NCBI GenBank assembly: GCA_965218795.1
Contig: OZ244653.1
Coordinates: forward strand, 3,872,001-3,936,000
Origin: a bacterium
Lineage (GTDB): Bacteria > UBA8248 > JACPRG01 > G963555815
Reading direction: 5' to 3'
DNA length: 64,000 nucleotides
The notes below the pieces were generated by a model. The model did no database searches. It was not told the origin of the DNA and saw only the letters and a program-made list of their open reading frames with translations. This document shows, in pieces, positions 1,074-53,470 of this stretch. Positions within the stretch are counted from its first letter, which is position 1. Each line of letters starts with the position of its first letter. The position numbers and the translations under genes are program-made.

Positions 1074-1898
1074 TCAGCCGGACCTCTCTGCAAGGGTAGA
1101 CAGCATCTCGGATTGTATCCTTCCGTTACTGGCTACGACCTCCCCACTGTAGACATAATCGTCTCCCCATGAAAAATCCGTCACACGGCCCCCTGCCTCC
1201 AGGACGAGCAGCGTTCCCGCTGCAACGTCCCAAGGACTGAGCTTCAATTCCCAATAGCCGTCCAGCCGGCCTGCGGCGACGTAGGCGAGGTCCAATGCCG
1301 CCGATCCTGCGCGCCGGATTCCCTGAACGCGAAGGGCGAATCGCTGAAAATGGTCGAGATTGTTGACGGGGCTTTCCCGCTTGTCGTAGGGAAAACCGGT
1401 GGCAATCAGCGAGCGGTCCAGTTCGGTCGTATCCGATACCCTGATGGTCTTTCCATTGAGCGACGAGCCCTGCTCCTTCTCGGCGAGGAAAAACTCCTCC
1501 CGGAGGGGATCGAAAATCGCTCCCAGTTTCATTCGGCCTCGTTGCTCGAACGCAATGCTCACGCAAAACATCGGAAACCCGTGCACATAATTGTTCGTTG
1601 CGTCCAGCGGATCAATGATCCACAAGTTCTCGGATTTCCTCGGTTCTTGCTCCCGTTCCTCGGTCAGGACGTCGTCATCCGGGAAGCTTTCGTTCAGCCG
1701 TTGGAGGATGAGGTCTTCAGAGGCGTGGTCCACTGCTGTCACGAGGTTGACAGCTCCCTTGTATTCGATCGATTGGGGCTTCCTGAAATTTTCGAGCAGT
1801 ATGCTGCCCGCCTCACGGGTAATTTCTTCCAGAATGCGGCGCCTTTCTTCCAACGATGATCTCCTTCCGGTTGAGTCGGGCGATGCGTGTTCGTGCAC
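1074..1898 (-). CDS. suhB: Inositol monophosphatase family protein (SuhB-like)
   Basis: Motifs WIIDPLDATNNYVHG, GSAALDLAYVAAGRLDGYWE and WDVAAG. Confidence 0.9.
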   Translation of the reverse strand: MHEHASPDSTGRRSSLEERRRILEEITREAGSILLENFRKPQSIEYKGAVNLVTAVDHASEDLILQRLNESFPDDDVLTEEREQEPRKSENLWIIDPLDATNNYVHGFPMFCVSIAFEQRGRMKLGAIFDPLREEFFLAEKEQGSSLNGKTIRVSDTTELDRSLIATGFPYDKRESPVNNLDHFQRFALRVQGIRRAGSAALDLAYVAAGRLDGYWELKLSPWDVAAGTLLVLEAGGRVTDFSWGDDYVYSGEVVASNGRIQSEMLSTLAERSG

Positions 1899-4271: not shown

Positions 4272-4557
4272 CGAAGATACTCTTTCGTAATAAATTTCTT
4301 ATACTTTCGTTTTAGATTAGTCTAATTATGTTCCTGCAGCAATCCTGAATATCGCAGCAGTCCACAAGTGTGTGGATTCAGCGTTTGATTGCGGGCGAGT
4401 AGAACGTATTTCGAGTTCAGTCTTCTCCATTGATGAGGCGTTATTGGAGCAATATGTATAATTGATGCCTCGATAAGGCTTGAAGTACCTCCGGTTATTC
4501 CATTGCTCGAAAGGTTGAAAGCTCTTGAACGCTCGATAGGAGCGCATCACGGTACCG

Positions 4558-22437: not shown

Positions 22438-25400
22438 GTGCCCGGCCAGTTATTCACTCATTATTTTCTCGCCGACGGCATAAAGGACACGGACGAGTGG
22501 CGGGAGTCCGCCGGCCGGCCGGAGGCGTTCGCCGCGTTCAGGGACGGTGTTCTTTCCCGTTACGAGGCCCTCCGCGGGTTTCGCGACCCCAACGAAGCCG
22601 TTACCGAGCAGGAGCTGATCCGTCCGGTTCTGGAGCTCCTTGGATGGGCCGACTACCTGCCCCAGCAGGGCGCGGCGCGGAACGAGGACATCCCCGATCA
22701 CCTCCTGTTCCCCGACGCCGGCTCCAAGGAACGCGCCGCCGCGAAACGGAACGCCAGCGATCGCTATCCGGATGCATCGGTGGTCGAGGAGAGCAAGCGG
22801 TTCGGTCTGCCTTTGGACTCCCGCGACAAGAAGGACGAGGCTCCGGCCGGTACGCCCCACGGCCAGATCCTCAGGTATCTGGGGACGGCCGAGACCGTTT
22901 CGGACGGGCGGATTCGATGGGGGATCCTGACCAACGGCCGCGCGTGGCGTCTCTATGACCACCGCGCCCGGCCCCGCGCCGCCGGCTATTTCGAGGCCGA
23001 CCTGGCGGACATCCTCCAGCCCGGCGGGGAAGACGCCCTGCGCGCGTTCCACCTGCTCTTCCGCCGCGAGTCCTTCGCGCCCCGGCAGGGCGCCGCGGCC
23101 ACCTTCCTGGAAGCCGCGATCGCCGAGGGCCGGCGCTACGAGGAGCAGGTCGCGCAGGACCTTTCGGGCGTGGTCTTCGAGCGCGTCTTCCCGCGCCTCG
23201 TGCAGGCCCTTGCGGACGCAACGGAGGAAAGCCTGCCGAAAATCCGGGAAGCCGCCCTGATTTTCCTGTATCGACTGCTCTTCGCGCTCTACGCCGAGGA
23301 CCGGGGCCTGCTGCCCGTCAACGATTCGCGTTACGACGACTACGGCCTGCGGAAGCGGGTGCGGGACGACGTTGCCCGCAGGATGGCGGATCAGGACGTC
23401 TTTTCGACTCACGCCTCCAGCTACTACGACCACCTGATGACGCTCTTCAGGCTCATCGACAAGGGCGACGATTCCATCGGCCTGCCGCCCTACAACGGCG
23501 GCCTGTTCGCGCCCGAAACCGCTGCGCTGCTGGAGAAGGTCCGCCTGGCCGACGCGGAGATCGCCCCAATCGTCTACGACCTGAGCCACAGCAGGGGCCC
23601 GCGCGGGGAGCGCCGCTTCGTCAACTACCGCGACATGTCCGTCCAGCAGCTCGGCTCGATCTACGAGCGCCTCCTGGAGCGCGAGCCGGTCCGCCATGAC
23701 GACGGCGCAATCACCATCCGTCCCAATTCCTCCGCCCGCAGGGACAGCGGCAGCTTCTACACCTCCCAGGAGCTGGTCGACCTCATCGTCGAGCGGACCC
23801 TCAAGCCCTTGGCGGAGGAGCGTCTCGCGGCGTTCGAAGCCGGGGCCGCCGCGCTCAAGAGCGACCGCCGGCCAAAGGCCGAGCGAAAAGCCGAGCTTCT
23901 CGAGCTGGACCCGGCCGAGGCGGTCTTGAACCTGAAGGTCCTGGACCCGGCCATGGGAAGCGGCCACTTCCTGGTCACGGCCGTGGACTTCCTGTCCGAC
24001 TACGTCGCCGATCTGATCGAGTACGTCCCCGCGGTCCCGGATTGGCTCGACGGCGGCTACGCTTCGCCGCTGGTGGAGCGCGCGGCCTCCATTCGCAGAG
24101 ACATCCTCCGGCGGGCCGAGGCGTCGGGCTGGGCGGTGGACGAAGCCCAGCTGACCGACCAGGCCGTCATCCGCCGGATGGTGCTCAAGCGGTGCATCTA
24201 CGGGGTGGACAAGAACCCGCTGACCGTCGAGCTGGCCAAGGTGTCGCTGTGGCTCCACAGCTTCACCGTGGGCGCGCCGCTCTCGTTCCTGGACCATCAC
24301 CTGCGCTGCGGCGACGCTCTGGTCGGCCTCCGGGTGCCGGAGGCGTTGGGCGACTTGCGGCGGCTGGCTGAACTGTTTCTCGGCAGCGCCATCGCCGGGG
24401 CGGAGGCCGCGGCCCAGGGCATGCAGCGCATCGAGGAGATGTCCGACGCCGACGTGGCCGAGGTGCGGGAGTCCGCCGCGCTGTTCCGGGGCGTCGAGGA
24501 CACGACCGCGGACCTGCGCGGCCTGCTCGACTTCCTGTGCGGGCTTCGCTGGCTCGCCGCGGGGATGAACCGGAGAGACCGCGCCGCCTTCGAGACCCCC
24601 CTGCTCGATACCATCGACCGGCAGCCCGAGAGCGCGTACAAACTCCTGGTAAAAGGCCCGGACGCCGTCGGTCCCGAACACCTTGGTGAACAGGACGCCT
24701 CCCGGCGGCGGTTCAAAGAGTTGTGGGATGACGCCAAGTCCATTGCCGACCGCGAGGGCTTCCTGCACTGGGAGGCCGCCTTCCCGGGGGTGTGGCGCGG
24801 GTGGCAGAACGTTCGTCCGGAAGGCGGCTTCGACGCCGTGATCGGCAACCCGCCCTGGGACCGGATCAAGCTTCAGGAGGTGGAGTGGTTCGAGACCCGC
24901 GCTCCCGAGCTCGCCCGCGCACCGACCGCGGCCGCGCGGACCGCCGGCATTCAGCGACTGCGAGACCGGGGAGCGCCCCTGGCCGCCGAGTTCGACGCGG
25001 CCAAGGAGCGGGCGGACAAGCTCGGCCAATTGATTCGCGCGTCCGGCCACTATCCCCTGCTGGGGGGAGGCGACATCAACCTGTATTCGCTGTTCGTGGA
25101 GCGGGCCATGGGCCTGATCAGGCCCGACGGCTTCGTGGGCCTGCTCACGCCGTCCGGCATCTACGCCGACCTGACCGCGGCCCGGTTTTTCAAGTCCGTC
25201 TCCACGGGCGGGCGCGTCGCCGGCCTGTTCGATTTCGAGAACAGGCGTCTTGAAACCGGCCTGCCGCCCTTTTTCCCTGACGTGGATTCAAGGTTCAAGT
25301 TCTGCGCCCTCATCTTCGGCGGCGAGAAAAGGACGTTCGACCGGACCCAGTGCGCCTTCTTCCTCCACGATACCGGCGCCATCAATGACCCGGAGCGCTG

Positions 25401-26181
25401 CTTCCCTCTGTCTCCCGCAGACTTCGCCCGCGTGAACCCGAACACCGGCACCGCTCCGATTTTCCGCGCGCGGCGGGACGCGGAGATCACTCGCCGCATC
25501 TATGAGCGGCATCCGGTGCTGGTGGATCGATCCAGCGGCGAGGAGCGCCGGGCTTGGCCGGTGAAGTACGTGCGCATGTTCGATATGACCAACGACTCCC
25601 ACCTGTTCCGTACCGCGGAGCAGCTCGAAGCCGAGGGCTTCTACTCCGTCGAGGGCAACCGCTGGAAGAAGGGCGAAGAGCTGTACCTGCCGTTATATCA
25701 GGGGCGGATGATCTGGCACTTCGATCATCGAGCCAGCTCTGTAAGGGTCAATCCCGATAACGTGCACAATCCATACCTGAGCGAGGCGGTCACAGAGGCG
25801 CAACATGCGGACCCTGATTTCCTTCCCCAAACGCAGTATTGGGTGCCAGCCCAAGATGTGGAGGAGGCTTTGCCCCAAAGTCGCGGGTACGCGTTGGGGT
25901 TTCGCGATATTACCAATCCTACGAACATGAGAACCATGGTCGCCTCAATAGTTCCTTGGGCCGGTTATGGAAACACAGTCCCTCTACTTGTTGGAGCCGA
26001 TGGCATGGCCGCCACCTGTCTCGTTGCGAATCTGAATGCAATGTGTGTGGACTTCGTTGCTAGACAGAAGGCTCAAGGCACACATCTGAACTGGTACATT
26101 GTCGAACAACAAGTTGCATTGACGATCAGAGGTTCGAGAGGGGTTCTCCAAGCCGGAGAGCCGGGTAGTGTCCTAATTTGA
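22438..26181 (+). CDS. Type IIG (Eco57I-like) fused restriction-modification enzyme, apparently C-terminally truncated
   Basis: Nuclease PD..EESK; MTase motif I VLDPAMGSGHF and motif IV GNPPW. Family-like sequence stops at HLNWYIVEQ (~26109), followed by 23 unrelated residues. Confidence 0.88.
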   Translation: MPGQLFTHYFLADGIKDTDEWRESAGRPEAFAAFRDGVLSRYEALRGFRDPNEAVTEQELIRPVLELLGWADYLPQQGAARNEDIPDHLLFPDAGSKERAAAKRNASDRYPDASVVEESKRFGLPLDSRDKKDEAPAGTPHGQILRYLGTAETVSDGRIRWGILTNGRAWRLYDHRARPRAAGYFEADLADILQPGGEDALRAFHLLFRRESFAPRQGAAATFLEAAIAEGRRYEEQVAQDLSGVVFERVFPRLVQALADATEESLPKIREAALIFLYRLLFALYAEDRGLLPVNDSRYDDYGLRKRVRDDVARRMADQDVFSTHASSYYDHLMTLFRLIDKGDDSIGLPPYNGGLFAPETAALLEKVRLADAEIAPIVYDLSHSRGPRGERRFVNYRDMSVQQLGSIYERLLEREPVRHDDGAITIRPNSSARRDSGSFYTSQELVDLIVERTLKPLAEERLAAFEAGAAALKSDRRPKAERKAELLELDPAEAVLNLKVLDPAMGSGHFLVTAVDFLSDYVADLIEYVPAVPDWLDGGYASPLVERAASIRRDILRRAEASGWAVDEAQLTDQAVIRRMVLKRCIYGVDKNPLTVELAKVSLWLHSFTVGAPLSFLDHHLRCGDALVGLRVPEALGDLRRLAELFLGSAIAGAEAAAQGMQRIEEMSDADVAEVRESAALFRGVEDTTADLRGLLDFLCGLRWLAAGMNRRDRAAFETPLLDTIDRQPESAYKLLVKGPDAVGPEHLGEQDASRRRFKELWDDAKSIADREGFLHWEAAFPGVWRGWQNVRPEGGFDAVIGNPPWDRIKLQEVEWFETRAPELARAPTAAARTAGIQRLRDRGAPLAAEFDAAKERADKLGQLIRASGHYPLLGGGDINLYSLFVERAMGLIRPDGFVGLLTPSGIYADLTAARFFKSVSTGGRVAGLFDFENRRLETGLPPFFPDVDSRFKFCALIFGGEKRTFDRTQCAFFLHDTGAINDPERCFPLSPADFARVNPNTGTAPIFRARRDAEITRRIYERHPVLVDRSSGEERRAWPVKYVRMFDMTNDSHLFRTAEQLEAEGFYSVEGNRWKKGEELYLPLYQGRMIWHFDHRASSVRVNPDNVHNPYLSEAVTEAQHADPDFLPQTQYWVPAQDVEEALPQSRGYALGFRDITNPTNMRTMVASIVPWAGYGNTVPLLVGADGMAATCLVANLNAMCVDFVARQKAQGTHLNWYIVEQQVALTIRGSRGVLQAGEPGSVLI

Positions 26182-26387
26182 AAGAACCAGCCCAGGTTGG
26201 ACCTTACGTTGGATGGGTAATACATTCACCTTTCGGACTCCCTTGATTTCCCGATTGCAAGGATAGTACCGAAGGGTGTAACTTATGACTTAGTGGGACT
26301 ATCGTTTCGGTTCCTCGAATCGGGCGGTGAACTTGGGAACCCTGAGACTTGGCTGAGTGGAAGGGTTTCCATCTTTAAGATTTCGGG

Positions 26388-26458
26388 TGGTGGAGGTGGG
26401 GGGAATCGAACCCCCGGGGCGAGCCTTCCAAACTGCGACCCCGCAACCTGCCACCCCC
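26388..26458 (-). ncRNA. tRNA/tmRNA-TLD-like small RNA lacking a D-stem; candidate C4/CI-type antisense RNA
   Basis: Acceptor stem GGGGGTG/CACCTCC with G3-U70 and ACCA end; T-arm GGGGG-TTCGATT-CCCCC; 9-nt D-replacement loop; long bulged middle arm with loop TTTGGAA. Confidence 0.72.
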
Positions 26459-26501
26459 CTTTATGGACCCCGGAGGCGTTCCCGCTTCCGGGGTTCTTTT
26501 T

Positions 26502-26530
26502 AATTTACGGCCCCGGGAACATCCTGTCAA
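26502..26530 (-). promoter_or_regulatory. Sigma70 promoter driving the tRNA-like RNA
   Basis: Minus strand TTGACA-N17-TAAATT, followed by a leader hairpin (~26466-26496) and then the tRNA-like unit. Confidence 0.7.
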
Positions 26531-26531
26531 T

Positions 26532-26601
26532 ATTTATCTCGTAATTTATCTCGGATAAAACTGAATTATGTCTTGATTATATCAACACTCCGGTATATAT
26601 T
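26532..26601 (+). promoter_or_regulatory. Operator-like repeats and divergent promoter
   Basis: ATTTATCTCG twice (26532-26541, 26544-26553); palindrome TTTATC-TCG-GATAAA (26545-26559); TTGATT-N17-TATATT (26573-26601). Confidence 0.5.
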
Positions 26602-26644
26602 TATTGGAGCTACAGCAGGAATCCAGGCAACAAAAGAGGAGAAC

Positions 26645-27445
26645 ATGACAATGACCGATGAAACCTCAATAGATAACGCCAAAGCAGAGACCACCAAGGG
26701 AAAGCGGGACAGGAGCCCTTCCTATCCGTTTATCTCGCTCAAGGAAGCCCTTGAGAAGGCAAAGAAATTTGCAGGCCAATATAAACGTCATCAAGCCAGA
26801 GTTTCAAATGCTGTGCGCGTTTGGGGCTATTCACCCAAGAGTAGTGGAGGGATTCAAACGATAGCGGCTCTGAAAGCTTTTGGCCTTCTAAAAGTCCAAG
26901 GCAGTGGGGATGACCGCAAGGTTGAACTAACGGCACTTGCATGGCGGATTCTTGAGGCAAATCAGGAATCCACACGGAGAGAGGCAATTTCGGAATCGGC
27001 TCTAAAACCCTCAGTTATCTCAGAATATCGAGGAAAGTGGGGGGCGGAACGACCGCCGGATGCCGAATGCCTAGACCACCTGATTTTTGAGAGGGATTTC
27101 AACAAAGACTCAGCAAGGCGTTTCCTGAAGATATATGATGACACCATTTCCTACGGAAATTTGACTGAATCTGATATATATACACTGGGTGAAGATCAAA
27201 ATAATGGTGGTGAATCTGGTACAGACGATAAACCGCAAACCGTGAAAGAGAGACAGTGGCGAAAGGAATTTGTATGGCCCCTTTCAGATGGAACAACTGC
27301 TGAATTGGTAATTGACGGTGTCCGTCCGGGAATGGATGAGATCGAGATTCTGAAAGCGAACTTTGATGTTGCCAAGAAGGTTCTGGAAAAAATCGCCAAG
27401 CACCCACCAGAAGGTGGGTCGGACGCCGAGGCTCCCCAAGAATGA
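26645..27445 (+). CDS. Hypothetical protein, possible winged-helix DNA-binding N-domain
   Basis: GAGGAG RBS; RSPSYPFISLKEAL..WGYSPKSSGG..IAALKAFGLL pattern; lower GC than the flanks. Confidence 0.65.
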   Translation: MTMTDETSIDNAKAETTKGKRDRSPSYPFISLKEALEKAKKFAGQYKRHQARVSNAVRVWGYSPKSSGGIQTIAALKAFGLLKVQGSGDDRKVELTALAWRILEANQESTRREAISESALKPSVISEYRGKWGAERPPDAECLDHLIFERDFNKDSARRFLKIYDDTISYGNLTESDIYTLGEDQNNGGESGTDDKPQTVKERQWRKEFVWPLSDGTTAELVIDGVRPGMDEIEILKANFDVAKKVLEKIAKHPPEGGSDAEAPQE

Positions 27446-27768
27446 CCGCCGATGTTCTTGTCCGGATGGCCCACGCCCGTCTTATGGGTTTAAAGGAAAG
27501 CCTTGATCAAAGAAAGGCTGCCAATCCCACGACGCTCGCAACCAAGGAATTTATTGATGACTACCATGACATCCTTAAGGATCTTGAAAGTCTCGAAAGT
27601 CCCAAAGTTGAATTGAAAAGATTCAGAATTCCCGACTCTGCGACTCAATCCTATGAGGATTCCATGTGGTGTGACATCGATTTTATGACTTCCAAACTTG
27701 GCGGTTTACTTAACCTATTCACGGTATCCCAGGATAAAACCAAGATCGGTTTCCTCGACCGAGCCTAA
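27442..27768 (+). CDS. Hypothetical protein (108 aa)
   Basis: ATGA overlap with the upstream gene; low GC; ends in KIGF. Confidence 0.6.
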   Translation: MTADVLVRMAHARLMGLKESLDQRKAANPTTLATKEFIDDYHDILKDLESLESPKVELKRFRIPDSATQSYEDSMWCDIDFMTSKLGGLLNLFTVSQDKTKIGFLDRA

Positions 27769-28134
27769 TCGCATAGAAACCGAATTAGAACACTACCGAG
27801 CGCCTTGGATTCGCTCGTCCCCATCGGAACAAAGCAGGCCGCGGACTCGCGATCCTGGCGGGTCCCGACGAGGGCGGGAAGTCCGCCCCCGGCGAATCGC
27901 CGCGCGCGTTCTCAGAACCCGCGGGGCGATTCGAGCGTCAACGAGCGTGAGAGAAACCCCAGGGATTTGTCGATTACCCTGCAAAACAACATGCCAAACA
28001 GTCACCGGATCAACCTTTCACCTTTTCCTTGTCGGATATATAATGAATTGAACATCAATGGGATATGAGCGTTTTTCCATGTCGGATTCTTTGTCAGATA
28101 GATCGTCATGTAATTCGCCGAACAGGGAGCGGAA

Positions 28135-29328
28135 ATGGACTGGAAACGATTCGATTTTGCATACCGTCTGGACAGGTCGGACCACGGGGACGCCTTGCTC
28201 TCCATCGAAACCTCCAAAGGAGTGGCTTTGAATCTGGTCCTTCCTCCCGACTGGAAGGAAAGCCTGGATAAACTCAACCGGATCCGCGCCGTTCATGGCA
28301 CCACGGCCCTGGAAGGAAATCCCCTCTCCGAGGCCGAAGTGTCGCAACAAATGGACATTCAAGAGCAATCCGCAGAACCTTCATATGCCGCTAGGCCCAG
28401 CAGAGAGCAGATTCAGATCAGGAACGCCGGGGCCGCGCAGGCATGGGTCCAAAAACGATTCAAGCCCGGAAGCGACCCCTTCGCGCTTTCCGATATTTTG
28501 CGCATGCACCGAATGATTACGGAGGACGCGGACATAACCGACAATACACCCGGAAAGCCGAGGGCCTTCGGGGTTCAGGTAGGAAGCCCGGAACTGGGGG
28601 GCGTTCACAGAGGCGCGCCGCATGAGCGGTTGCCCGAGCTCATGGGAAAATACATCGAATTTCTGCGATCGGGGAAAATGGCTTCCGAACACCCCGTAAT
28701 CCGGGCATTATTGGCTCATTTTTTCCTGGTGACCATTCACCCGTTCGGCGATGGGAATGGAAGAACGTCCCGGTTGGTGGAAGCCGGAATACTGTTTCAG
28801 GGAGGGTACAACATACACGGGTTTTATGGGTTGTCCAATTATTTCTACCGCCATGACCTCCAATACAAGACCTTGCTTCAGAAATGCCGGGGAAAACAGC
28901 CTTTTGACGTTACGCCGTTCATTGATTTCGGGTTACAGGGATTCGTGGAAGAATTAAAGGGGATCAACAACTTCATCAAGACAAAGCTGAACCGGGTCGT
29001 CTATCGGTCGATGCTGGTCCGCGCTCGCAACCAGAAGGTAGGAGAGCGCCGCCGCCTCGTCAATGAAAGGGAATATAATCTGCTTGATTTTTTGATCTCG
29101 GAAACAGAGCCGCTCGATCCGTTTTCCGAACAGCCCTCAAGGAAAATCACCCTCTCCGAACTGCTGGAAGCGTCATATATCCGGGAGGCCTATAAAAATG
29201 TCACCACGAGAACGTTCGTAAGAGAGTTGTTAAGGCTCTCGGAGTTCGGTTTCATCAAATTTTCAGCGGACGCGGGAACGGAAGATCTGGTTATCGAAAT
29301 GGACTTTGACGCCATAGGCAAATACTGA
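28135..29328 (+). CDS. Fic family protein
   Basis: Canonical HPFGDGNGRTSR; N-terminal GTTALEGN inhibitory-like motif. Confidence 0.92.
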   Translation: MDWKRFDFAYRLDRSDHGDALLSIETSKGVALNLVLPPDWKESLDKLNRIRAVHGTTALEGNPLSEAEVSQQMDIQEQSAEPSYAARPSREQIQIRNAGAAQAWVQKRFKPGSDPFALSDILRMHRMITEDADITDNTPGKPRAFGVQVGSPELGGVHRGAPHERLPELMGKYIEFLRSGKMASEHPVIRALLAHFFLVTIHPFGDGNGRTSRLVEAGILFQGGYNIHGFYGLSNYFYRHDLQYKTLLQKCRGKQPFDVTPFIDFGLQGFVEELKGINNFIKTKLNRVVYRSMLVRARNQKVGERRRLVNEREYNLLDFLISETEPLDPFSEQPSRKITLSELLEASYIREAYKNVTTRTFVRELLRLSEFGFIKFSADAGTEDLVIEMDFDAIGKY

Positions 29329-29581
29329 TTCGACCGCGCTCCGTCTGCCTGCTGCGCAATCCTGCGCCATTATCCCCCCTCTCCCGCGGCCCCTGACGCG
29401 GGGAGAAAGGGTTTGCCCCGCCCGCGCGACGCGGGGTTTTCGCAGAATCCGTTCTCTTGCGCTCAGTGCGTCCACCGCCTTTTCCGCCATGAGGAAGAGG
29501 CGCTTCCCGCCGCTTTGTGAATTGAGTCGGTTTTGACAGAACGGAGAGAATCCTATACAAAATAAGGCTTTGGAGGTTCCC

Positions 29582-30784
29582 ATGAACAGATTGGTTTCAA
29601 AATGGGTTTTCCGGAGACTCCGTGCGTTTTTGGCGGCGCTCCCCGTTTTTCTCCTGCTCTGCTCTCAGGCAAACGCTGAACCGCCGGACGGCTCGGCGGA
29701 CAAGTTCTATGTCAGGGCGGGCGGCGGCGTTTTTTTTCTGGACCTTCCAGAGTCGAGCCCGTTTATCAGGACAAACGGCGCCGAAGAGGCCGTCGCTTTC
29801 CTCGAGCACTACGACGCGTCCTATCGGGCCGGGCCGCTGGTCAGTCTTGCGGTCGGCGGCGAATACAAAGCCTTCGGGCGCAGTCTTTTCACCGAGGCGA
29901 GCGGTTTCCACACTTCCCACAGCTCCAGGCATGTCAACGTACACAGCTCGCCCACCGAACCCTGGACGGACGTAGAGACGACTTATATGGACACGTACTG
30001 CCAAGGGATATCACCAGAAGAATGTTCCTTTACACCGGCCAGAGAGCAGGGGTTAGTGCGTTTGGTAGAAACCGATCCGCACGTCAGATCTGTTGGTTGG
30101 ATTGGAGCGATAGATGGAAAGGCGTTGGATTTCGGCACGCCCAATTTCGCCTGGGGCGATCCCATACGCATCACGACGGAAAGGGACGTGAAATTCTGGG
30201 GCGGCGATTTTGTTACCGGAATTTCCTTCGGCCTGGAAGGGCAGCGCAAAGTCTCTCTTTTTATCGGTCCAAGCTTCAAGAGGCTGCGTCAGGCGTTCGA
30301 TATTTTCGCCTATGAGTCCAACAGGGACCCGAACGTCAACCATATGACGCTGAAAGAGGAGCTGAAAGCCTCGTATTACGGCGGCGTTGTCGGCATCCGC
30401 CTTGACGTTCCGTTCAAAGAGCGCTGGAAGCTCACGATAGACGGCGAATTGGGGGGATATTACCTTGATTCCGAATATGAGGGACGCCAGAGAACTTTCC
30501 TGTCGTCGTTGGATTCGACTCTGGATGTGTCCACCGATTCGAAATTCAATGATTCAAACGCCGCCGTGTCATTCAGTTTTCAACCGTCGCTGAGCGTCAC
30601 GTTCCTTGAAAGCCTGACATTTCAGGCAGGGGCCGGAATTGAATATCTGTCTCGTGCTCCGGTTATACGCTACGCGAGCCTGGGAGAAAGTTTTCAATCC
30701 GGAGTTCGCCACGCTCCGGTGCGTATAGAGTATTCGAGAGCGTTCGGAGTTCTCAGCACATTTTCCATCACCTATGAGTTTTGA
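29582..30784 (+). CDS. Hypothetical outer-membrane beta-barrel protein
   Basis: Signal peptide (ANA), alternating beta-strand pattern, C-terminal SITYEF. Confidence 0.65.
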   Translation: MNRLVSKWVFRRLRAFLAALPVFLLLCSQANAEPPDGSADKFYVRAGGGVFFLDLPESSPFIRTNGAEEAVAFLEHYDASYRAGPLVSLAVGGEYKAFGRSLFTEASGFHTSHSSRHVNVHSSPTEPWTDVETTYMDTYCQGISPEECSFTPAREQGLVRLVETDPHVRSVGWIGAIDGKALDFGTPNFAWGDPIRITTERDVKFWGGDFVTGISFGLEGQRKVSLFIGPSFKRLRQAFDIFAYESNRDPNVNHMTLKEELKASYYGGVVGIRLDVPFKERWKLTIDGELGGYYLDSEYEGRQRTFLSSLDSTLDVSTDSKFNDSNAAVSFSFQPSLSVTFLESLTFQAGAGIEYLSRAPVIRYASLGESFQSGVRHAPVRIEYSRAFGVLSTFSITYEF

Positions 30785-31229
30785 CAGGGGTTCCCGCCGA
30801 ATCCTCTCCTGAATAAGGCGCCAGGGGCGCCCCTCGTGGGCGCTGGGCCGGGTTGCAGCCGCGCCCTCCCTGCTCGGAGGCGCGGGGACGTGCCTCATGG
30901 CGCCCCGGAACCTCCTCGCGCGCGGATGTCTTCGGCCTCTCCTTCGGTATAGGCTCCGGTAACGGCGCCGCTGTCTTCCGGCAGTTCACTGCTTTCCGGC
31001 TTGTCGATTGCGGTCTCAGCATCTCTCGCCATCTCCCTGCTTCTCCATCGGACAAGCCTTCGACGAGGGAGTCCGCATCTGCCTGGCTTATACCTCCGCC
31101 GCAAATCACTCCCGACAGCTCGCTTTCTTTGCCTGTCCGATTCCTGATGCGTTCCGTAAAAGTCATCAAGAGATCGCTACTTCCGTCCCCTTGCAGGCGT
31201 GTCCCGTCAAGAGCCGCCCCTTGCAGATG

Positions 31230-31453
31230 CGGTCCGGACCCATCATCTCATCGCGTTCCGGCAGGCTTGGAAACGGTTCGAGGAAGCCATCCCCGGACCG
31301 GTGAGATTGGGTTCCACAGCAGGAACTGCGTACGGTGCTGAACGGGATGACCAAGCCATGCAGGGCATGATACTCGGCGATGTCCCGGATTTCGGATGGG
31401 CCATGGAACAGCTTCATCGCGCCGAAGCCGCGATCAACGGAATCCAGCCTTAA
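31230..31453 (+). pseudogene. C-terminal remnant of an AbiEii-like nucleotidyltransferase toxin
   Basis: LIAFRQAWKRFEEAIPG..AMQGMILGDVPDF..LHRAEAAIN resembles AbiEii C-termini; no N-terminus is present. Confidence 0.5.
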
Positions 31454-31505
31454 AAGAAACCCTCAAATCCGACATGGCATGGGTATCGTTCAGGGGCGTA
31501 CCAGC

Positions 31506-31606
31506 TTGACTCATCCATTCTTCGAACAGCCTGTGCTCAATTCGCCTTACGAGCGCCCGAGCCGGCACTGGGAACTGGACGAGAGGGGGCATCCGGCCCA
31601 AAGGCT
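31506..31606 (+). pseudogene. N-terminal remnant of a type III restriction (Res) subunit
   Basis: THPFFEQPVLNSPYERPSRHWELDERGHP is a characteristic Res N-terminus; similarity ends after ~33 codons. Confidence 0.65.
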
Positions 31607-31785
31607 CACGTCCGGGTCTCCGGGTCAGCAGGTTTTTCTCGGGAGATACCTACCGGAGCGAGCCGGATGGCGGAAGGGTCGGCAGGCATCATCCACGGGT
31701 CATCCATCGCAGGACTGGCCAGCGAAGCCAATCTTGCCTTTTGACCTGTTTGCGGCCTATATTCAGTCCGCAAAGGAGGTGACTC

Positions 31786-32061
31786 ATGAAACTGTCCAGC
31801 CGGATCAAGCCGATCAGTTACCTCAAGGCCCACGCCGCTGAGATCGTGCGCACGCTTGGGGACCGGCGGGAACCCTTGATCATCACCCAGAACGGCGAAG
31901 CCAAGGTGGTCATGCAGGATATCGACAGCTACGAGCAGACGCAGGAGACCGTTGCGCTGCTCAAGATCCTCGCGCTGGGCAGCCGCCGGATCGAAGCGGG
32001 TCAGGTGCAACCCGCCGCCGATGTCATCGCGCGGCTTCGGGAGCGGCGACGGGCTCGTTGA
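31786..32061 (+). CDS. Phd/YefM family antitoxin
   Basis: IKPISYLKAHAAE..PLIITQNGEAKVV; AGGAGG RBS. Confidence 0.9.
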   Translation: MKLSSRIKPISYLKAHAAEIVRTLGDRREPLIITQNGEAKVVMQDIDSYEQTQETVALLKILALGSRRIEAGQVQPAADVIARLRERRRAR

Positions 32062-32387
32062 TGTCCTTCCCGGTTCAGTTGACCGATGACGCGGCGCGCG
32101 ACCTGGAGGAGATCTGCGATTACATCGATCGGCGCGATGCGCCGGGCCGGACGGAGCGCGTGCTGGAGCAGATCGAAAAGGCGTTCCGCAGCCTGTCCGA
32201 GTATCCCCAACGCGGGAACTGCCCGATGGAATTGCTGGACATCGGGATTCGGGAGTACCGAGAGATCCTCTTCAAGCCCTACCGCATCATCTACCGGGTG
32301 ATGGAAAACAACGTCTATGTGCTCGTGATCGCCGATGGACGGCGTGACATGCAGACGTTGCTGCAGCGGCGCTTGCTGCAGGCGTAA
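32061..32387 (+). CDS. RelE/ParE family toxin
   Basis: AARDLEEICDYI..YPQRG..YREI..PYRIIYRV; overlaps the antitoxin stop. Confidence 0.9.
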   Translation: MSFPVQLTDDAARDLEEICDYIDRRDAPGRTERVLEQIEKAFRSLSEYPQRGNCPMELLDIGIREYREILFKPYRIIYRVMENNVYVLVIADGRRDMQTLLQRRLLQA

Positions 32388-32829
32388 GCTCCGCTCCGCG
32401 CCTGTCCCAAACCGCGGATCTTCTATAGCCAATCGGTCAGAAAGCGACAGGGACCCCGCTCACCGGCTCCCGCCGCGCTTTCGACTACCTGCAAGATCTG
32501 GGTCGGCCTGAAGCGTCACCGGGGCCTCTCGGTGGACGCCGTGGAGAGCCGGTTCCTGGCCGCCAGCGAGCGCCTTGCTACCAAATGAATACGCAGAAGG
32601 TGTACGCTTGTGTCTTGCACAGGGATTTGGACAACTGTTCGGTGAACATGTGCAGATAAAGCAGTCTAGGCCGATTCGACTTGAACCGAAGATGGGGGGC
32701 GGAATGAAAAAAGAAGCGTCTCGGATAAGCCTGTATCGGCTTGACTACGCGAACTATTTACCAATTCCTTTTGGGCTGAAAGGCCTCGCCGTATTTCTAA
32801 AGGCTGTATTCCGGTGTCATCAGGTAATC

Positions 32830-34395
32830 GTGAAGGTTCGTAAGAGGTGGACTTTACGAAAGGTACTAGCTGAACTCCTTGTTGCTGGAAGCATTGTTGG
32901 ACTCACTGCGTGCGCGAATCTCAATACGATTGACCGAGCCACGCAGCTGCCAGGTGCAAAAAGCAGCACTGGGAAAGCCGTCCATCTGGACATCCAGCAG
33001 CGTCTTCTGATTGTTAATCATTTAGGCAAGTATTGCGCGGAGCCGAGCCCCGACGCACTTGCCGCTTTTGCCGCCGAAGTCGGTGTTAGTGCAGGCCAAC
33101 CAGACCACCAAGCTCTCAGTGCCATCATCGGCGGACAGAGCTCAACGGCAGGTGTGGGCCTTCGCACGCAGTCCATAACCTTGATGCGCGACGCGTTATT
33201 CCGCATGTGTGAGGCATATGTGAACGACGCTCTGGGTCCCGCCCAAGTCGCAGCGCTGTTGCAGCGCAGCCAAGATCTCACGGCAGTAATCCTCGCGGTC
33301 GAGCAGCTCACAGGCGCTGTTGTGGCTAATCAGACATCGCTGACCGGCTCAACGACTGCCGACGCGTCGGCGACTGCGCTCGCGACAGCAAATCTACTTG
33401 AGCAAGCTTTGGCCGCCGAGGATAGGCGGCAACAAGAGCTCGAACAGGCCCAAGCTGAACTGATAACCGCCGAGGCCGAGCGTGATGCGGCGGCTCAAGC
33501 ATTGAGCGAGGCTGGTAGTGACCAGCTGCCCGGTAGCTCCACCGAACAGGACAACAAAGAGGATACGAACACCAAAGTGGCATCTAAGAAGGCGGAGAGC
33601 AAACGTGCCAGCCTCGCATTCATGAATGCGGAACAGCGCGTCGCGCTTCGGAAAAAATGGCTGGAACATGCCCGGCGCACCCGCGAAAAAATCGAGAGTA
33701 ATCAGGATGCCGCCATAGCCGATTTGTCCGTCTCAATCAGCAGCGACGCCCAGTTCAGCAATCCCGCCCAGCGAGTTCAGCTTGACAAGGCCGTGTCAGA
33801 GCAAGTCGTGAAATCAGTCGAAAAGATGGTCACGAAAGTTCTCGAAAAAGACTACACGGTCGAATCCTGTATGGCGATTATTTCCACTGTATCCAGCAAC
33901 AAATCGGTTAATGAAACAGTTCATCTCGAGAAAACAAAGGACCTCTGCTTACAGCTTATGCAGAAAAAGGTGGAAGAACGTACTAAAGCTATCACGTACG
34001 GATACGACGATTTATCCACCGTTATTGATGTGTGGCTAAAGAAGAACGAAGGCAACAGAGAGCTTCTGCGTACTTGGCTCAGGGAAAACGGCTATGATAT
34101 CCGTGTCTCTGCTCTTTTGATTGGAAAGCACAGAGAGTTACGCAAAAAAGTCATCGAACACTTCAAGATTGCGGCTATCACATCCCCGGACAAACCCGCC
34201 GACAAGCCGGATGAAGAGCCTGCTGACAATTCAAATGACCTTATCGACGCGTGGTTAAAGGAAGGCGAAAACAACAGGGAGCTTTTGCGTACTTGGCTCG
34301 AGAAAAATGGCCATGATATCCGTGTCTCCGCTCTTTTGGTTGGAAAGCACGGAGGGTTACGCAAAAAGATCATCGAACACTTCAAGATTCCATGA
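32830..34395 (+). CDS. Hypothetical lipoprotein with coiled coil and duplicated ~50-aa C-terminal domain
   Basis: Lipobox LTAC; YCAEPSPDA..RTQSITLMRDALFRMCEAYVN; C-terminal tandem repeat. Start uncertain (the ORF opens at 32575). Confidence 0.7.
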   Translation: MKVRKRWTLRKVLAELLVAGSIVGLTACANLNTIDRATQLPGAKSSTGKAVHLDIQQRLLIVNHLGKYCAEPSPDALAAFAAEVGVSAGQPDHQALSAIIGGQSSTAGVGLRTQSITLMRDALFRMCEAYVNDALGPAQVAALLQRSQDLTAVILAVEQLTGAVVANQTSLTGSTTADASATALATANLLEQALAAEDRRQQELEQAQAELITAEAERDAAAQALSEAGSDQLPGSSTEQDNKEDTNTKVASKKAESKRASLAFMNAEQRVALRKKWLEHARRTREKIESNQDAAIADLSVSISSDAQFSNPAQRVQLDKAVSEQVVKSVEKMVTKVLEKDYTVESCMAIISTVSSNKSVNETVHLEKTKDLCLQLMQKKVEERTKAITYGYDDLSTVIDVWLKKNEGNRELLRTWLRENGYDIRVSALLIGKHRELRKKVIEHFKIAAITSPDKPADKPDEEPADNSNDLIDAWLKEGENNRELLRTWLEKNGHDIRVSALLVGKHGGLRKKIIEHFKIP

Positions 34396-34415
34396 TTACA
34401 TTAGGAGACAAAGAC

Positions 34416-34559
34416 ATGAGCTCAACGAGCGAACACACGGTGGAAGCAAGAGACGTTGAAAATACCGTGAGAATCATGCGAGAGGATGGGGCTACAAAAA
34501 TCGTAATTACGAAGAACTCTGACAGTACGTTCGACGTGACCGCCACATTTCCGGATTAA
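34416..34559 (+). CDS. Small protein (47 aa), absent from the ORF track
   Basis: AGGAG RBS; MSSTSEHTVEARDVENTVRIMREDGATKIVITKNSDSTFDVTATFPD; 20 nt after the lipoprotein stop. Confidence 0.6.
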   Translation: MSSTSEHTVEARDVENTVRIMREDGATKIVITKNSDSTFDVTATFPD

Positions 34560-34904
34560 GCACATACAATCTAGCGCGGAAAGTGGGCGGTGCCGGTCGG
34601 CGAGTCGGAAACGTCGAGTACTGGCCTATAGGCTAGCTAGAAGCCACGGTGCTTACTAGCATTCGGTCGATTTGATGAAGTCTACGCGGATGGGGGCACT
34701 CAGTTCCGAATGCAGCGAATGTCGTAGGTCCGCATGTTGGCGCGACCGACTCTCGCGGTCGAGCGCCGGCGGTCAGACTGTCAGGTGATTACCGTCTCAA
34801 TACATGAACGGAGCGCATGTGGAAGGCGAGGCCGAAGTCCTTGGCCAGCCGGTTGAGGGCGATGTAAAGGTCACGCGCCAGGCCGTCCCCTTTCCCCGCC
34901 TGCG

Positions 34905-35070
34905 ATTCCTGCTTGCGCAGGAATGACAACCAGAACCATGCCGATCCCCCAGCGATCCCGCCCCCTACGGTTTCAGGCGGGGGTCATTCCCGCGGGGACA
35001 AGCTCCGCAGGAATGACAAACGAGGCTCGCGCACAACAGCCTGTTATTCCTGCGCAAGCAGGGATCCACA
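34905..35070. repeat. REP/dRS3-like mosaic cluster
   Basis: ATTCCTGCTTGCGCAGGAATGAC, with spacers shared with 18705-18812. Confidence 0.7.
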
Positions 35071-35203
35071 ACACTCGGGAACAGGCCCCGCCCTGTCCGT
35101 TCTTCTCTCGCGCCTGCCAGCGGACAAAAACGGACGTCACTCCTCCAGCGAAGGGCGGGCGACGTCCGCTTGTCAATGCTACGAAACCGATGCTCCCGTT
35201 CGC

Positions 35204-36289
35204 TTACTCCTTGTACTCGAAGACAGGGGCCTTCCGCGGACCGCGTTTGGGGAGCTTGATTCCGGGCAGATAGGCGTTCGTGTAGAGATCGGACGGCTTG
35301 GGCTTGTCCTTCATCTTGAGGGGCTTGGCCAGAAAATCGATGGTTTGCTGCCACTTTTCATCCGTCATCCCGCCCAGGCCCTTGGCCCGGCCGCTTTTCG
35401 TGTACCACAGGTCGCCCGTCACATCCCAGACCTCCCGGTTCGGGGCCTTGCTGCAGGTCGGGCATTTCTTCATCAGGTACTCGATGGCTTCGTCCGGGTG
35501 CGCGAGGGCGTAGGCGATGCCGCGAATGGAGGCCTTGAGAAACTTCCGCACTTCCTCGCCCCGCGCCTCGAGGGTCTTGTCCAACGCCGCGACGCCGGCG
35601 CCGTAGATATTCAAGCCCTCGTTGATAAGAGGGACGAAATGGATCTCTTTGCCGCGCTGCTTCGCTTTTCTGGAAAGGATGCCGTACTGCGTGACGAAGC
35701 CGGTCGAGGCCAGATACGAGCCCGCCAGCATCCCGGCGTCCCGTGCGGCGGGCGTGGTGTTCACGAACTTGACTTTGCTCAGATCGTATCCCTTGATGCC
35801 GAACAGGAGCTTGATGCTGGGCCAGATGGCGTCATTCTCGGGCGCCCCGATGCTCTTCCCTTCCAAATCCTTGAGCGAGTTGATCCCCCGGTCCTTGGTG
35901 GTCCAGATGGTCAGGGGCGGGATGTCGTGATTCATGAAGACCATCTTGGATTTGACCCCTTTTTTCAGGGCGATGAGCTGGGAGATCGGCGGAATGGCGC
36001 CTCCCAGGGTATATGAACCGGCAGCGACCTTGGTCATGGTGTCTCCGCCGCCGAATCCACGGATGATCTTGACGTTGCTGAGCTCCTCCTCCTGGTAGAA
36101 TCCCTTGTCCTGGGCGGTCAGCCACCCCAAATCCCGCCCGTAGAACACCCAGCCGATGCTGAACACGAAGTCCTTCTTCTGGGCCTGGGCCACCGGCGCC
36201 CACAGCCCGGCGACCAGGGTCAAGGCCAGGAGTCCGGCCACGCAAAGGAAGAACCCCCGGCGAATGATTGAGACTTTTGGAGCGCGCAT
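35204..36289 (-). CDS. NMT1/THI5-like ABC substrate-binding protein (orphan)
   Basis: Signal peptide (AQA), AQDKGFY.EE, GINSLKDLEGKSIG, DLYTNAYLP. Confidence 0.8.
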   Translation of the reverse strand: MRAPKVSIIRRGFFLCVAGLLALTLVAGLWAPVAQAQKKDFVFSIGWVFYGRDLGWLTAQDKGFYQEEELSNVKIIRGFGGGDTMTKVAAGSYTLGGAIPPISQLIALKKGVKSKMVFMNHDIPPLTIWTTKDRGINSLKDLEGKSIGAPENDAIWPSIKLLFGIKGYDLSKVKFVNTTPAARDAGMLAGSYLASTGFVTQYGILSRKAKQRGKEIHFVPLINEGLNIYGAGVAALDKTLEARGEEVRKFLKASIRGIAYALAHPDEAIEYLMKKCPTCSKAPNREVWDVTGDLWYTKSGRAKGLGGMTDEKWQQTIDFLAKPLKMKDKPKPSDLYTNAYLPGIKLPKRGPRKAPVFEYKE

Positions 36290-52066: not shown

Positions 52067-52799
52067 GGGTCATGCCTAGCTAAGAGTCGATCTTTACTCC
52101 ATAATGCTATGTATGACAATGAAAAACAAGTATGCGAGGCGTTCAAGGATTTCCGAGGCCAAAGTCCGTGAAGCCGTTCGGTATTTCGCCGCAGCTCTCA
52201 CCGCTGTCCAGGCGGCCGAGTTGAGCGGATTGAACCGGAACACGGTGAACCGTCTATACCGCGCTCTGCGGGAACGCATCCTGCTAGCTTGTGAGGCGCA
52301 ACGCCCTGTGTTCGGTGTGGTCGAGGTAGACGAAAGTCTCTTCGGCGCTCGCCGCGTGAAGGGCAGGCGCGGGCGTGGAGCCTATGGCAAAACGACCGTC
52401 TTTGGTATCTTCGAACGTGAGGGACAGGTCTATACGGAGATCGTCTCGGATTGCTCAAAGCCCACACTGCAAGGGATCATCCGCGGCAAGGTGGACCTGA
52501 ACACCGTCGTCAACACGGACAACTGGCGTGGCTACAACGGCTTGGTCGAGCTCGGATACGGCCACTTCCGGGTCGACCATTGCTTTGATGAGTTCACTTG
52601 CGGTGCCGTCCACATCAACGGCATCGAAGGCTTCTGGGGACTGGCCAAGGTTCGGCTGGCAAAATTCAAGGGCCTGCCCAAACACACCTTCCACCTCCAT
52701 CTCAAAGAAACCGAGTGGCGCTACAATTATCGCCATTCCAACAAATACAAAACCCTGTTAACCTACCTGCGAGAAAATCACATCAGCTAGGCATGACCC
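52067..52799 (+). mobile_element. IS1595-family insertion sequence
   Basis: Perfect 15-bp TIR GGGTCATGCCTAGCT (52067-52081 / 52785-52799); flanks TTAGTTTT and TTAGTTTA form an 8-bp TSD with one mismatch. Confidence 0.92.
52104..52790 (+). CDS. IS1595-family transposase
   Basis: VEVDESLFG..RGRGAYGKT, TDNWRGY, HINGIEGFW, LHLKETEWRYN. Confidence 0.92.
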   Translation: MLCMTMKNKYARRSRISEAKVREAVRYFAAALTAVQAAELSGLNRNTVNRLYRALRERILLACEAQRPVFGVVEVDESLFGARRVKGRRGRGAYGKTTVFGIFEREGQVYTEIVSDCSKPTLQGIIRGKVDLNTVVNTDNWRGYNGLVELGYGHFRVDHCFDEFTCGAVHINGIEGFWGLAKVRLAKFKGLPKHTFHLHLKETEWRYNYRHSNKYKTLLTYLRENHIS

Positions 52800-52972: not shown

Positions 52973-53470
52973 CGGTATTTTTCAACCCAATGTGAAAATC
53001 TCCGATCCGGAAATTTCAGCGGAGGGCGAGCAGAGCTTGTTACCCCCGCGAAACATGCCCCCGAAGGTCTGAATCGGGGGGCGGGGGTCCACTGCGAAGT
53101 TGCACACAGGCCCCCGGCCCCTCTCCCGCCGGCCGGCACGGTGGCTCTCCAAGTAGCGCAGGACGCGAAGTTGCATACAGACCTCCAGTCCCTCTCTCGA
53201 TGCGCCCCTTTGTCCGGCCTGCCCCCATTTGGACTTGTTTACCCCATCATTCCTTTCCATATTTGTCACAACAACCGAGGGGCTCGAACATGGCGGACAA
53301 CGATCCACCCGGACCAAGCGGTTGAAAGAGATGAAGCGTGAGCAGCCTGGACGTGGGTAGGGGTTCGGTCGAGGAGTCGGGGATGATTTTGAAGAGTATG
53401 CCGCGTTTCTGGAACTCGACGTTACCCGAGAAGAAAGCAAGTGCCTGCACCCGTCGGGCTAGGCGTCGGC

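Follow-up and report, generated by a model that had tools for sequence, protein, structure and literature searches.

A minimal tRNA-like RNA gene of alanine identity, probably a passenger of an IS1/IS1595-like transposon remnant

What is a short tRNA-like RNA gene, equipped with a promoter of its own, doing at the end of a restriction gene in a bacterial chromosome? The question is raised by a 64,000-nucleotide (nt) stretch of a bacterium of the UBA8248 lineage (GenBank contig OZ244653.1, forward-strand positions 3,872,001 to 3,936,000; hereafter the window, in whose numbering positions are given). A sequence-only reading of this DNA had recognized a promoter, a leader hairpin and a 71-nt mimic of tRNA or transfer-messenger RNA (tmRNA) on the minus strand, and had proposed that two loops of the RNA silence an open reading frame (ORF) further along the same transcript. 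The analysis presented here retains the mimic and gives up the switch. With moderate confidence, the 71-nt unit is read as a free-standing minimal alanine-type tRNA-like RNA that travels as a passenger of an IS1/IS1595-like transposon remnant, is processed in the manner of a tRNA and is probably charged with alanine.

The features on which this reading depends are given below; the RNA gene is referred to as the mini, and its look-alikes elsewhere as minis.

26164-26182, plus strand: left terminal inverted repeat (IR-L), GGTAGTGTCCTAATTTGAA, 14/15 complementary to 27783-27797, a motif shared with relatives
26183-26387, no strand: 205-nt spacer from IR-L to the RNA gene, holding the proposed antisense target (26193-26213) and the ATG at 26225; the transposase side in full-length relatives
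26388-26458, minus strand: mini RNA gene, 71 nt, of alanine identity and like a tRNA or the tRNA-like domain (TLD) of tmRNA, from ARAGORN, Rfam, fold, model R1 and covariation
26465-26496, minus strand: leader hairpin of 14 pairs, beginning near the predicted transcription start and ending 6 nt before the mature 5' end
26502-26530, minus strand: sigma-70-type promoter TTGACA-17-TAAATT, from a promoter scan
26532-26552, minus strand: two direct repeats GAGATAAAT (26552-26544 and 26540-26532), 12 nt apart and abutting the -35 element
26645-27445, plus strand: P0001 (the '26645 protein'), 266 amino acids (aa), an intact ORF divergent from the RNA and an accessory gene of the transposon family
27442-27768, plus strand: P0002, 108 aa, a predicted ORF without a family match that overlaps the P0001 stop
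27783-27797, plus strand: right terminal inverted repeat (IR-R), AATTAGAACACTACC, 15 nt, 93% complementary to 26164-26178

The 71-nt unit and its family

The acceptor of the unit, GGGGGUG/CACCUCC, is composed of seven base pairs (bp), all standard, with G3·U70 and the discriminator A73 that together mark alanine identity; the 3' ACCA is encoded in the genome. The T-arm, GGGGG-UUCGAUU-CCCCC, is paired at five of five stem positions and presents the T-loop UUCGAUU. Between the two, the D region is able to form a 3-bp mini-hairpin, GCAGGUUGC, and a second hairpin with a bulged stem is capped by the loop UUUGGAA. The minimum-energy fold comprises the acceptor, the mini D-hairpin, the capped hairpin with two bulges and the T-arm. 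A clean 10-bp central helix was considered and ruled out, since this fold requires both bulges, and the D-arm, 5-bp anticodon stem and variable region of a canonical cloverleaf are not found in it. The unit is thus present at 26388-26458 as first described (7-bp acceptor, G3·U70, A73, encoded CCA, perfect T-arm); the claim that it has no D-stem stands for the mimic as a whole and has to be softened for the 3-bp hairpin. A contig of sequencing run X1 spans 25647-28500 with zero differences from the window, and one of run X5 spans 26113-28500 with 31 differences, of which none among those listed falls in 26348-26609.

Two of the annotation programs that the sequence-only reading had suggested call the unit, each under a different name. 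ARAGORN reports a tRNA-Ser(gga), and Rfam reports a tmRNA (RF00023) at 49.1 bits against a cut-off of 47 (E = 2e-16, model positions 1-374). In the Rfam alignment, 22 nt of the unit occupy the place of 318 model positions, and the mRNA-like domain, with its resume codon and tag reading frame, is absent. The tmRNA pseudoknots and long helix 2 are missing from both the alignment and the fold, where a single bulged hairpin is found instead. As read here, the mini keeps the 'top half' of tRNA-Ala or tmRNA, with acceptor, encoded CCA and T-arm, plus a tiny D-hairpin and one capped helix.

Upstream of the unit, the -35 element TTGACA (26530-26525) and the -10 element TAAATT (26507-26502) are separated by 17 nt on the minus strand. 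The promoter scan scored this arrangement 10/12 and returned 3 sites per 1 kb against 1.1 +/- 1.1 expected. A promoter followed by a leader hairpin is thereby confirmed in the sequence, as is a promoter-driven mimic with the alanine identity set and encoded CCA. Inspection by eye of related leaders placed a hairpin within a few nt of the tRNA-like gene, on its upstream side, in L177, L203, L226 and L313, TTGAC(A/G) at the equivalent place in 8/13 leaders with TTGCG in two more, and repeated TCTGAT-type motifs where the window has its direct repeats. The GAGATAAAT repeats are a candidate operator of the divergent protein P0001. Read on the plus strand, the 14 pairs of the leader hairpin and the T-run TTTTTAATTT that follows them make a good intrinsic terminator (26465-26506). 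Transcripts exiting the restriction gene would cross the mini in antisense and end at this terminator, and such convergent transcription may affect the RNA.

The host genome carries a complete ssrA (200.7 bits) with its tag frame directly after smpB, 148 kb from the mini, and the 71-nt unit is therefore an extra copy. Its T-arm and 3' end are identical at 28/29 positions to the host ssrA and to ssrA of the same bacterial family, and its acceptor has exactly the sequence found in the host tRNA-Ala(UGC). The sequence-only reading had allowed that the unit might be a mere attachment-site (att) duplicate of the ssrA 3' end; this is excluded because the mini carries the matching 5' acceptor strand. 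A simple attL/attR product was rejected as well, with none of the 38 genomic PF00589 matches lying within the window and ssrA 148 kb away. An upstream homology to the ssrA promoter, proposed from a shared 9-mer (GATGTTCCC) seen by eye, was also set aside, as MAFFT and blastn-short support the 29-nt 3' end only. While 114 phage records match the mini, they do so over its 3' 29-41 nt only and none spans 80% of the RNA. Among the 51 genomes of the phylum that were searched, no unit like the mini was found outside the host genome, nor any DNA relative of its flanks. As a separate observation, 64-nt matches to the whole tmRNA model lie about 1 kb from ssrA in two relatives (G048:C3:1497245-1497308 and G035:C1:1377766-1377829); these may be att-type fragments or further minis.

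Minis were found in other phyla. A pattern scan of species-representative genomes identified 20 further units of 70-73 nt with the same acceptor in Acidobacteriota, Ignavibacteria, Dehalococcoidia, Proteobacteria and groups of the candidate phyla radiation (CPR). A full tmRNA is also encoded in 10/10 mini-bearing host genomes tested. Model R1, from which locus L168 (genome G061) was left out as it was from A6, gave the window unit 74.5 bits, the top of all sequences; the next-best match in the host genome reached 46.5. The model also found four more minis in 151 genomes of another class, besides the known one of L174.

When 13 minis are compared, pairing is complete (100%) in the acceptor and reaches 98.5% in the T stem; the central helix is 58% paired and aligns poorly. 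Five acceptor or T-stem pairs have changed on both sides, and the covariation score of 0.370 compares with 0.157 in shuffles (0/500 reach the observed value) and at most 0.206 in slid controls. Both G3·U70 and A73 are retained in 7/7 minis whose discovery did not depend on a fixed acceptor (the window, L200, L256, L312, L313, L315 and L316), which represent five distinct acceptor sequences. Judged by the Rfam E-value, the covariation in relatives and the identity of the 5' strand with host tRNA-Ala and ssrA, the 71-nt unit is a genuine RNA gene beyond chance.

Three further observations were made on the minis of other genomes. Locus L174 has, 1.2 kb from its mini, an 86-nt gene (4464-4549, plus strand) whose acceptor has 8 bp and whose T stem has 4 bp; with its long variable arm and the anticodon UAU, this gene resembles an allo-tRNA(UAU). 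The CPR minis of L165, L167 and L178 are flanked by a complementary leader and trailer (GCCGCTGCGT ... CAGCGGC) that look like a processing stalk. Finally, L169 and L171 hold near-identical minis with identical flanks in genomes labelled as two different bacterial groups, and this near-identity suggests a recent transfer.

The transposon remnant and its relatives

The mini lies within 1634 bp (26164-27797) that read, in order, IR-L, the 205-nt spacer, the mini, the leader hairpin, the promoter, P0001, P0002 and IR-R. The sequence GGTAGTGTCCTAATT at 26164 pairs with 27783-27797 at 14/15 positions. Positions 26164-26182 are identical at 18-19 of 19 positions to both ends of the 2.7-kb L226 element, and the IR-L motif recurs at both ends of L202, L203 and L205; the window element is thus bounded, as a transposon is, by terminal inverted repeats that it shares with other copies. 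No DDE transposase was found between 26164 and 27797. Since the relatives have one inside their repeats, the window copy is a non-autonomous remnant. The spacer holds no transposase remnant (best E 0.18, 7-residue matches only) and has no DNA relative that could be found. Elsewhere in the host genome there are five degenerate transposase matches and seven repeat-motif sites against one in a control; P0001 and the mini occur once each.

The insertion site of the remnant is the very 3' end of an ORF for a type IIG restriction-methylase. This ORF now closes within IR-L, which contributes its final five codons and its TGA stop (26179-26181; translation ...GSVLI, then the stop), and the insertion may have replaced the native C-terminus of the enzyme.

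To place the remnant within a family, 80 metagenome loci encoding P0001 relatives were fetched, 70 of them with at least 350 nt of upstream sequence. A DDE transposase homolog of the IS1 or IS1595 type adjoins the P0001 homolog in 31/80 loci. Where the neighbouring ORF was examined, the transposase lies divergently upstream of P0001, and a match to PF03400 or PF12762 was obtained for 9/10 of these ORFs. Colinearity between L202 and L205 extends over exactly 2365 bp, comprising transposase, intergenic leader and P0001. Both are bounded by 25-26-nt inverted repeats (GGTCGTGTCTCAGTTTGAAA) and L246 by 35-nt repeats, with a DDE transposase and a P0001 homolog inside. The family resembles IS1 and IS1595 insertion sequences in its terminal inverted repeats and in the DDE transposase (PF03400 or PF12762) of its relatives; it departs from them by carrying a conserved accessory gene of winged-helix-like type and, in part of its members, a gene for a tRNA-like RNA within the leader of the transposase.

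The accessory gene is represented in the window by P0001, for which 57 homologs were found. In L202, L205, L226 and L246, the P0001 homolog lies inside an element bounded by inverted repeats. The closest homologs, P0004-P0006, are 72-86% identical over the alignment and 70-77% by BLASTP. No Pfam, NCBIfam or PHROG family was identified for P0001. Its predicted structure (predicted local distance difference test, pLDDT, 83.4) returned weak fold matches, mostly to winged helix-turn-helix regulators and none at E <= 0.001; from the model, it is probably a winged-helix DNA-binding protein. Passages of PMC10542128 describe SmpB-like folds in defence systems, and this prompted the idea that P0001 might be SmpB-like. 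The idea was rejected, as Pfam and NCBIfam gave no SmpB and the fold search nothing at E <= 0.001. None of the fetched loci encodes a homolog of P0002, of the SoFic-type protein described below or of the products of the remaining ORFs in the window.

A tRNA or tRNA-like gene, ordinary-looking in some loci and irregular in others, was found 160-315 nt upstream of P0001, divergent from it and on the transposase strand, in 12/70 loci. This count includes the near-identical copies L225 and L226. L213 has the tRNA-like gene of L211 by eye and was left uncounted for want of a tool call, and six rows of a relaxed finder (L185, L194, L238, L246, L248 and L264) were dropped by eye, being 48-95 nt long with no T-loop context. 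The minis of L200 and L256 share the architecture of the window, score 64.5 and 70.6 bits on model R1 and are situated between a TTGACA promoter and the transposase start. For loci chosen by their transposase, the tally is 74/151 genomes, or 72/149 without G159 and G168, the latter of which yielded no locus; L297 (genome G159) was left out of the 2/29 count given below.

The transposase leaders hold other elements that are recorded here in their own right. In L200, L202, L205, L211, L213, L192 and L256, a conserved element lies between the promoter and the tRNA-like slot. It is either a short AGGAGG-ATG frame of about 30 codons or a structured RNA, is followed by a strong hairpin (GGGCCGCT...AGCGGCCC) plus TAATCGGC, and has no counterpart in the window copy. 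In L312 (about 1579-1680, plus strand) and L177 (7431-7503, minus strand), a second irregular tRNA-like gene occurs a few bases after the mini and ahead of the transposase; that of L312 is a type-II tRNA-like gene whose loop, CUUGGAA, is near the UUUGGAA of the mini. Upstream of the transposase of L294 and L300, in the slot of the tRNA-like genes, ARAGORN reports a 'tRNA-Pyl(cta)' of 93 nt and a 'tRNA-Ala(ggc)' of 88 nt, both irregular and one with an amber anticodon.

Weighing the explanations

If the unit is a minimal alanine-type passenger RNA, its transcription would begin at the element's own TTGACA-17-TAAATT promoter, which P0001 would probably control through the GAGATAAAT repeats, and the transcript would open with a hairpin. 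RNase P would then cut at G1 of the mini, the 3' end would be trimmed to the encoded CCA, and alanyl-tRNA synthetase (AlaRS) would charge the product. In the intact relatives L200 and L256, the tRNA-processing enzymes would also cut the transposase leader because the mini stands between the promoter and the transposase ORF. Candidate roles in trans are a competition with tmRNA for SmpB, EF-Tu or AlaRS, by analogy with a phage-borne form described below, or some other use of an alanine-charged minihelix. Besides that phage-borne form, a precedent is given by the irregular tRNAs that passages of PMC5389517 link to transposon-related genes. A broader proposal is put forward tentatively, and is clearly less likely than not to hold: IS1/IS1595-like transposons of several phyla would encode their own class of minimal alanine-charged mimics in the transposase leader, each with the invariant G3·U70 and A73, a mini D-hairpin and a 7-nt loop resembling an anticodon loop, together with a winged-helix regulator. 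The RNA would then be a functional component of the element, acting in cis as the place where tRNA-processing enzymes cut the transposase transcript and in trans through an effect on ribosome rescue or decoding of the host.

Several points weigh against the passenger reading or limit its reach. The 71-nt RNA is known here from sequence alone, and its fold energy is ordinary (z = -0.98, with 36/200 shuffles equally stable). The Rfam margin is slim, and ordinary tRNA-Ala genes reach 39-44 bits on the tmRNA model. The element shows no clean target-site duplication, as the flanks GAGAGCCG and GAGCGCCT agree at only 5/8 positions. Minis are present in only 2 of the 70 P0001 loci, and an irregular tRNA-like gene stands upstream in only 2/29 loci chosen by transposase alone; from these counts and the 12/70 given above, the RNA is an occasional passenger and not a fixed part of the family. 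The transposases of L177 and L312 have their own TTGACA/TATAAT-like promoter, so co-transcription of mini and transposase is not general. From the side of the RNA, 17/20 pattern-scan minis (16/19 without L168) have no transposase homolog in the fetched 8 kb and none of the 20 has a P0001 homolog. Outside the CPR, and excluding L168, a transposase homolog is found beside the mini in 3/7 loci (L174, L177 and L182). The four minis found by model R1 are biased to G3·U70 since the model was trained on G3·U70 sequences.

The rival that fares best, while still unlikely, is that the RNA is a decoy for the tmRNA system, titrating SmpB (and EF-Tu or AlaRS) once charged or bound and thereby dampening or redirecting trans-translation to the benefit of the mobile element or of a defence island. 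It has a precedent in the TLD-only tmRNA, lacking a coding sequence, of mycobacteriophage DS6A; passages of PMC4131195 and PMC11915505 describe such a molecule as an inhibitor of tmRNA, strong in the account of PMC4131195. To the same kind belong the forms of about 65 nt without a coding sequence from Mallomonadaceae plastids, and near it stand the jakobid-type mitochondrial tmRNAs. As far as those passages describe it, the DS6A form is like the mini in consisting of a short TLD only, with a G3·U70 acceptor, T-arm and capped helix and no tag frame or pseudoknots. The mini also has the general properties of that kind (about 60-80 nt, no coding sequence, a mobile carrier and a host with its own tmRNA), a likeness at the level of description. 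The two differ in that the carrier of the mini is a chromosomal transposon remnant and not a phage or organelle, and in that its D-loop has shrunk to GCAGGUUGC and its GAC connectors are absent. Compared with bacterial tmRNA, the mini shares the tRNA-like domain, the 28/29 identical 3' end and an Rfam score over the cut-off; it is without the resume codon, tag ORF, pseudoknots PK1-4 and most of helix 2, and it does not lie beside smpB. By its predicted architecture it is of the TLD-only tmRNA kind, and not a full tmRNA, a canonical tRNA or a C4-like RNA.

The sequence lends the decoy some further points. In addition to the Rfam score and the near-identity with the 3' end of host ssrA, the motif GUU(U/C)GGAAGGC is matched at 11/12 positions at the same offset before the T-arm as in host ssrA, and, once four deletions are allowed for, the D region runs colinear with GACAUGGAUUCGAC. 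Canonical TLD-only genes also recur in viral contigs (L025, L030, L037, L045, L078, L090, L108/L123, L113 and L116). These genes, chosen by eye among 113 rows that include many ordinary phage tRNAs, are 62-82 nt long with the D-loop GGNUUCGAC, a short capped helix, a GAC-like connector, a T-arm and CCA, and TLD-only tmRNAs seem to be common in IMG/VR contigs, beyond the single phage DS6A.

The GAC connectors and the D-loop UUCGAC of tmRNA contact SmpB. In the Rfam alignment of the 71-nt unit, the connectors flanking helix 2a are deleted, as is UUCGAC, and the idea of an SmpB decoy is weakened by this loss. The loop UUUGGAA is common to the window RNA and the L312 mini of another phylum, so that the likeness to ssrA may be a family trait or a coincidence. 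The tRNA-Ala genes that score nearly as high on the tmRNA model also count against the decoy, and Pfam and NCBIfam identified no smpB-like gene nearby. The DS6A precedent would favour interference with tmRNA and SmpB; the connector motifs, however, are absent here.

It is improbable, more so than the decoy, that the RNA is a decaying, functionless leftover in a dead element. The window copy is degenerate and without a transposase, of which no remnant is left, and for this reason the RNA could be a relic. The further genomic copies of the family are broken too, bulges interrupt the central helix, the fold is of ordinary energy and no relative among the 51 genomes searched has the unit. What speaks against decay is the state of the unit itself: the acceptor (7/7), T-arm (5/5), CCA, G3·U70, A73, promoter and leader hairpin are all intact, the unit has the highest score on the family model and the neighbouring P0001 ORF is intact.

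A non-canonical decoding tRNA is a very unlikely explanation. An alanine-charged RNA of this kind would use its 7-nt loop (UU-UGG-AA or UU-GGA-AG) as an anticodon and place alanine at proline or serine codons, with the long hairpin replacing the stacked D and anticodon stems. The ARAGORN call of tRNA-Ser(gga) points in this direction, as do the 7-nt loop of most of the 21 aligned minis, which by eye has U before and A after a variable triplet, and the CUUGGAA loop of the adjacent gene in L312. Irregular tRNAs with conflicting identity and anticodon are described in passages of PMC5389517 (Mukai et al. 2017), which link irregular or 'allo' tRNAs to transposon-related genes and toxin-antitoxin loci. 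Those allo-tRNAs, as described there, resemble the mini in being non-canonical tRNA-like genes, some of alanine identity, in mobile contexts; they have an 8/4 or 9/3 branch, a long variable arm and a full D-arm, whereas the branch of the mini is 7/5, its D-arm is nearly absent and a variable arm is missing altogether. ARAGORN accepts just 3/21 minis. The stem has two bulges and there is neither a variable region nor a position-26 junction, several members have C at '37' or A at '33', and the loop of the window RNA aligns with ssrA helix-2 sequence rather than with an anticodon arm.

The antisense switch proposed by the sequence-only reading, in which TCCAA-N9-CAACCTG is bound by two loops of the RNA and a downstream ORF is thereby silenced after the fashion of the P1 C4 and P4 CI RNAs, can be dismissed. 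Its segments do exist in the correct antiparallel order, TCCAA at 26213-26209 and CAACCTG at 26199-26193 separated by 9 nt, as does the ATG (26225-26223). When the 288 nt that follow the RNA were dinucleotide-shuffled 2000 times, however, 57% of the shuffles contained some 7+5 match in the right order, and the best duplex energy was equalled in 18%; a loops-only definition, with predicted loops for both partners and picked post hoc, was matched by 176/5000 shuffles (3.5%). The proposed target is located within the remnant, 11-31 nt in from its left inverted repeat. The 50-aa ORF from ATG 26225 (26073-26225) reads through this repeat onto the antisense strand of the type IIG restriction gene, which rules it out as a conserved gene belonging to the unit. 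The segment CAGGUUG is the conserved D-analogue throughout the mini family and is kept in relatives without the downstream target sequence; DNA comparisons found no relative with the same 200 nt downstream of the RNA. Rfam gave no C4 or other antisense family at E <= 10 over 26100-26700, and there are no phage genes nearby. The sole trait shared with C4 and CI RNAs is release from a longer transcript by RNase P, which is predicted here; the mini differs from them in that it matches no such family, its target pairing is unsupported and it lacks a setting of phage immunity.

Neighbouring genes and significance

The surroundings of the minimal alanine-type RNA and its carrier include the following genes.

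22438-26181, plus strand: type IIG restriction-methylase of 1247 aa, MmeI/Eco57I-like and DrmMI-like
28135-29328, plus strand: SoFic-type Fic protein (PADLOC E = 1e-42)
53441-56311: type I R subunit

After the SoFic gene, five ORFs (29570-36016) have no family match above curated cut-offs and lie in a stretch of lower G+C content (0.50-0.58). Together, the type IIG gene, the SoFic gene, these unassigned ORFs and the type I R subunit look like a defence island. The window also encodes a separate IS1595-type (ISXO2-like) transposase of 228 aa (52104-52790, plus strand), which is 32% identical to the L246-type transposase.

Literature searches on insertion sequences gave no description of a tRNA-like leader borne by such an element; similar RNAs may be listed in the supplements of PMC5389517 and PMC11915505. 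The novelty lies in the spread of minis across phyla and in their carrier, a transposon of IS1/IS1595-like type that has a conserved accessory gene. There is also a warning for genome annotation, as a call of a 'tRNA-Ser(gga)' of about 70 nt or of a second 'tmRNA' may be such a passenger.

TLD-only tmRNAs have so far been reported as rarities of one phage and a few organelles. The window provides a bacterial chromosomal example, and look-alikes recur in viral contigs and in several phyla, some of them in a fixed slot of a transposon family. Provided that the RNA is both charged and active, mobile elements would be carrying mimics that touch AlaRS, EF-Tu, SmpB or RNase P. Should the wider proposal hold, these mimics would be a new kind of RNA encoded by insertion sequences, beside bridge RNAs, omega RNAs and the antisense RNA-OUT, and transposition or defence islands would be linked to ribosome rescue.

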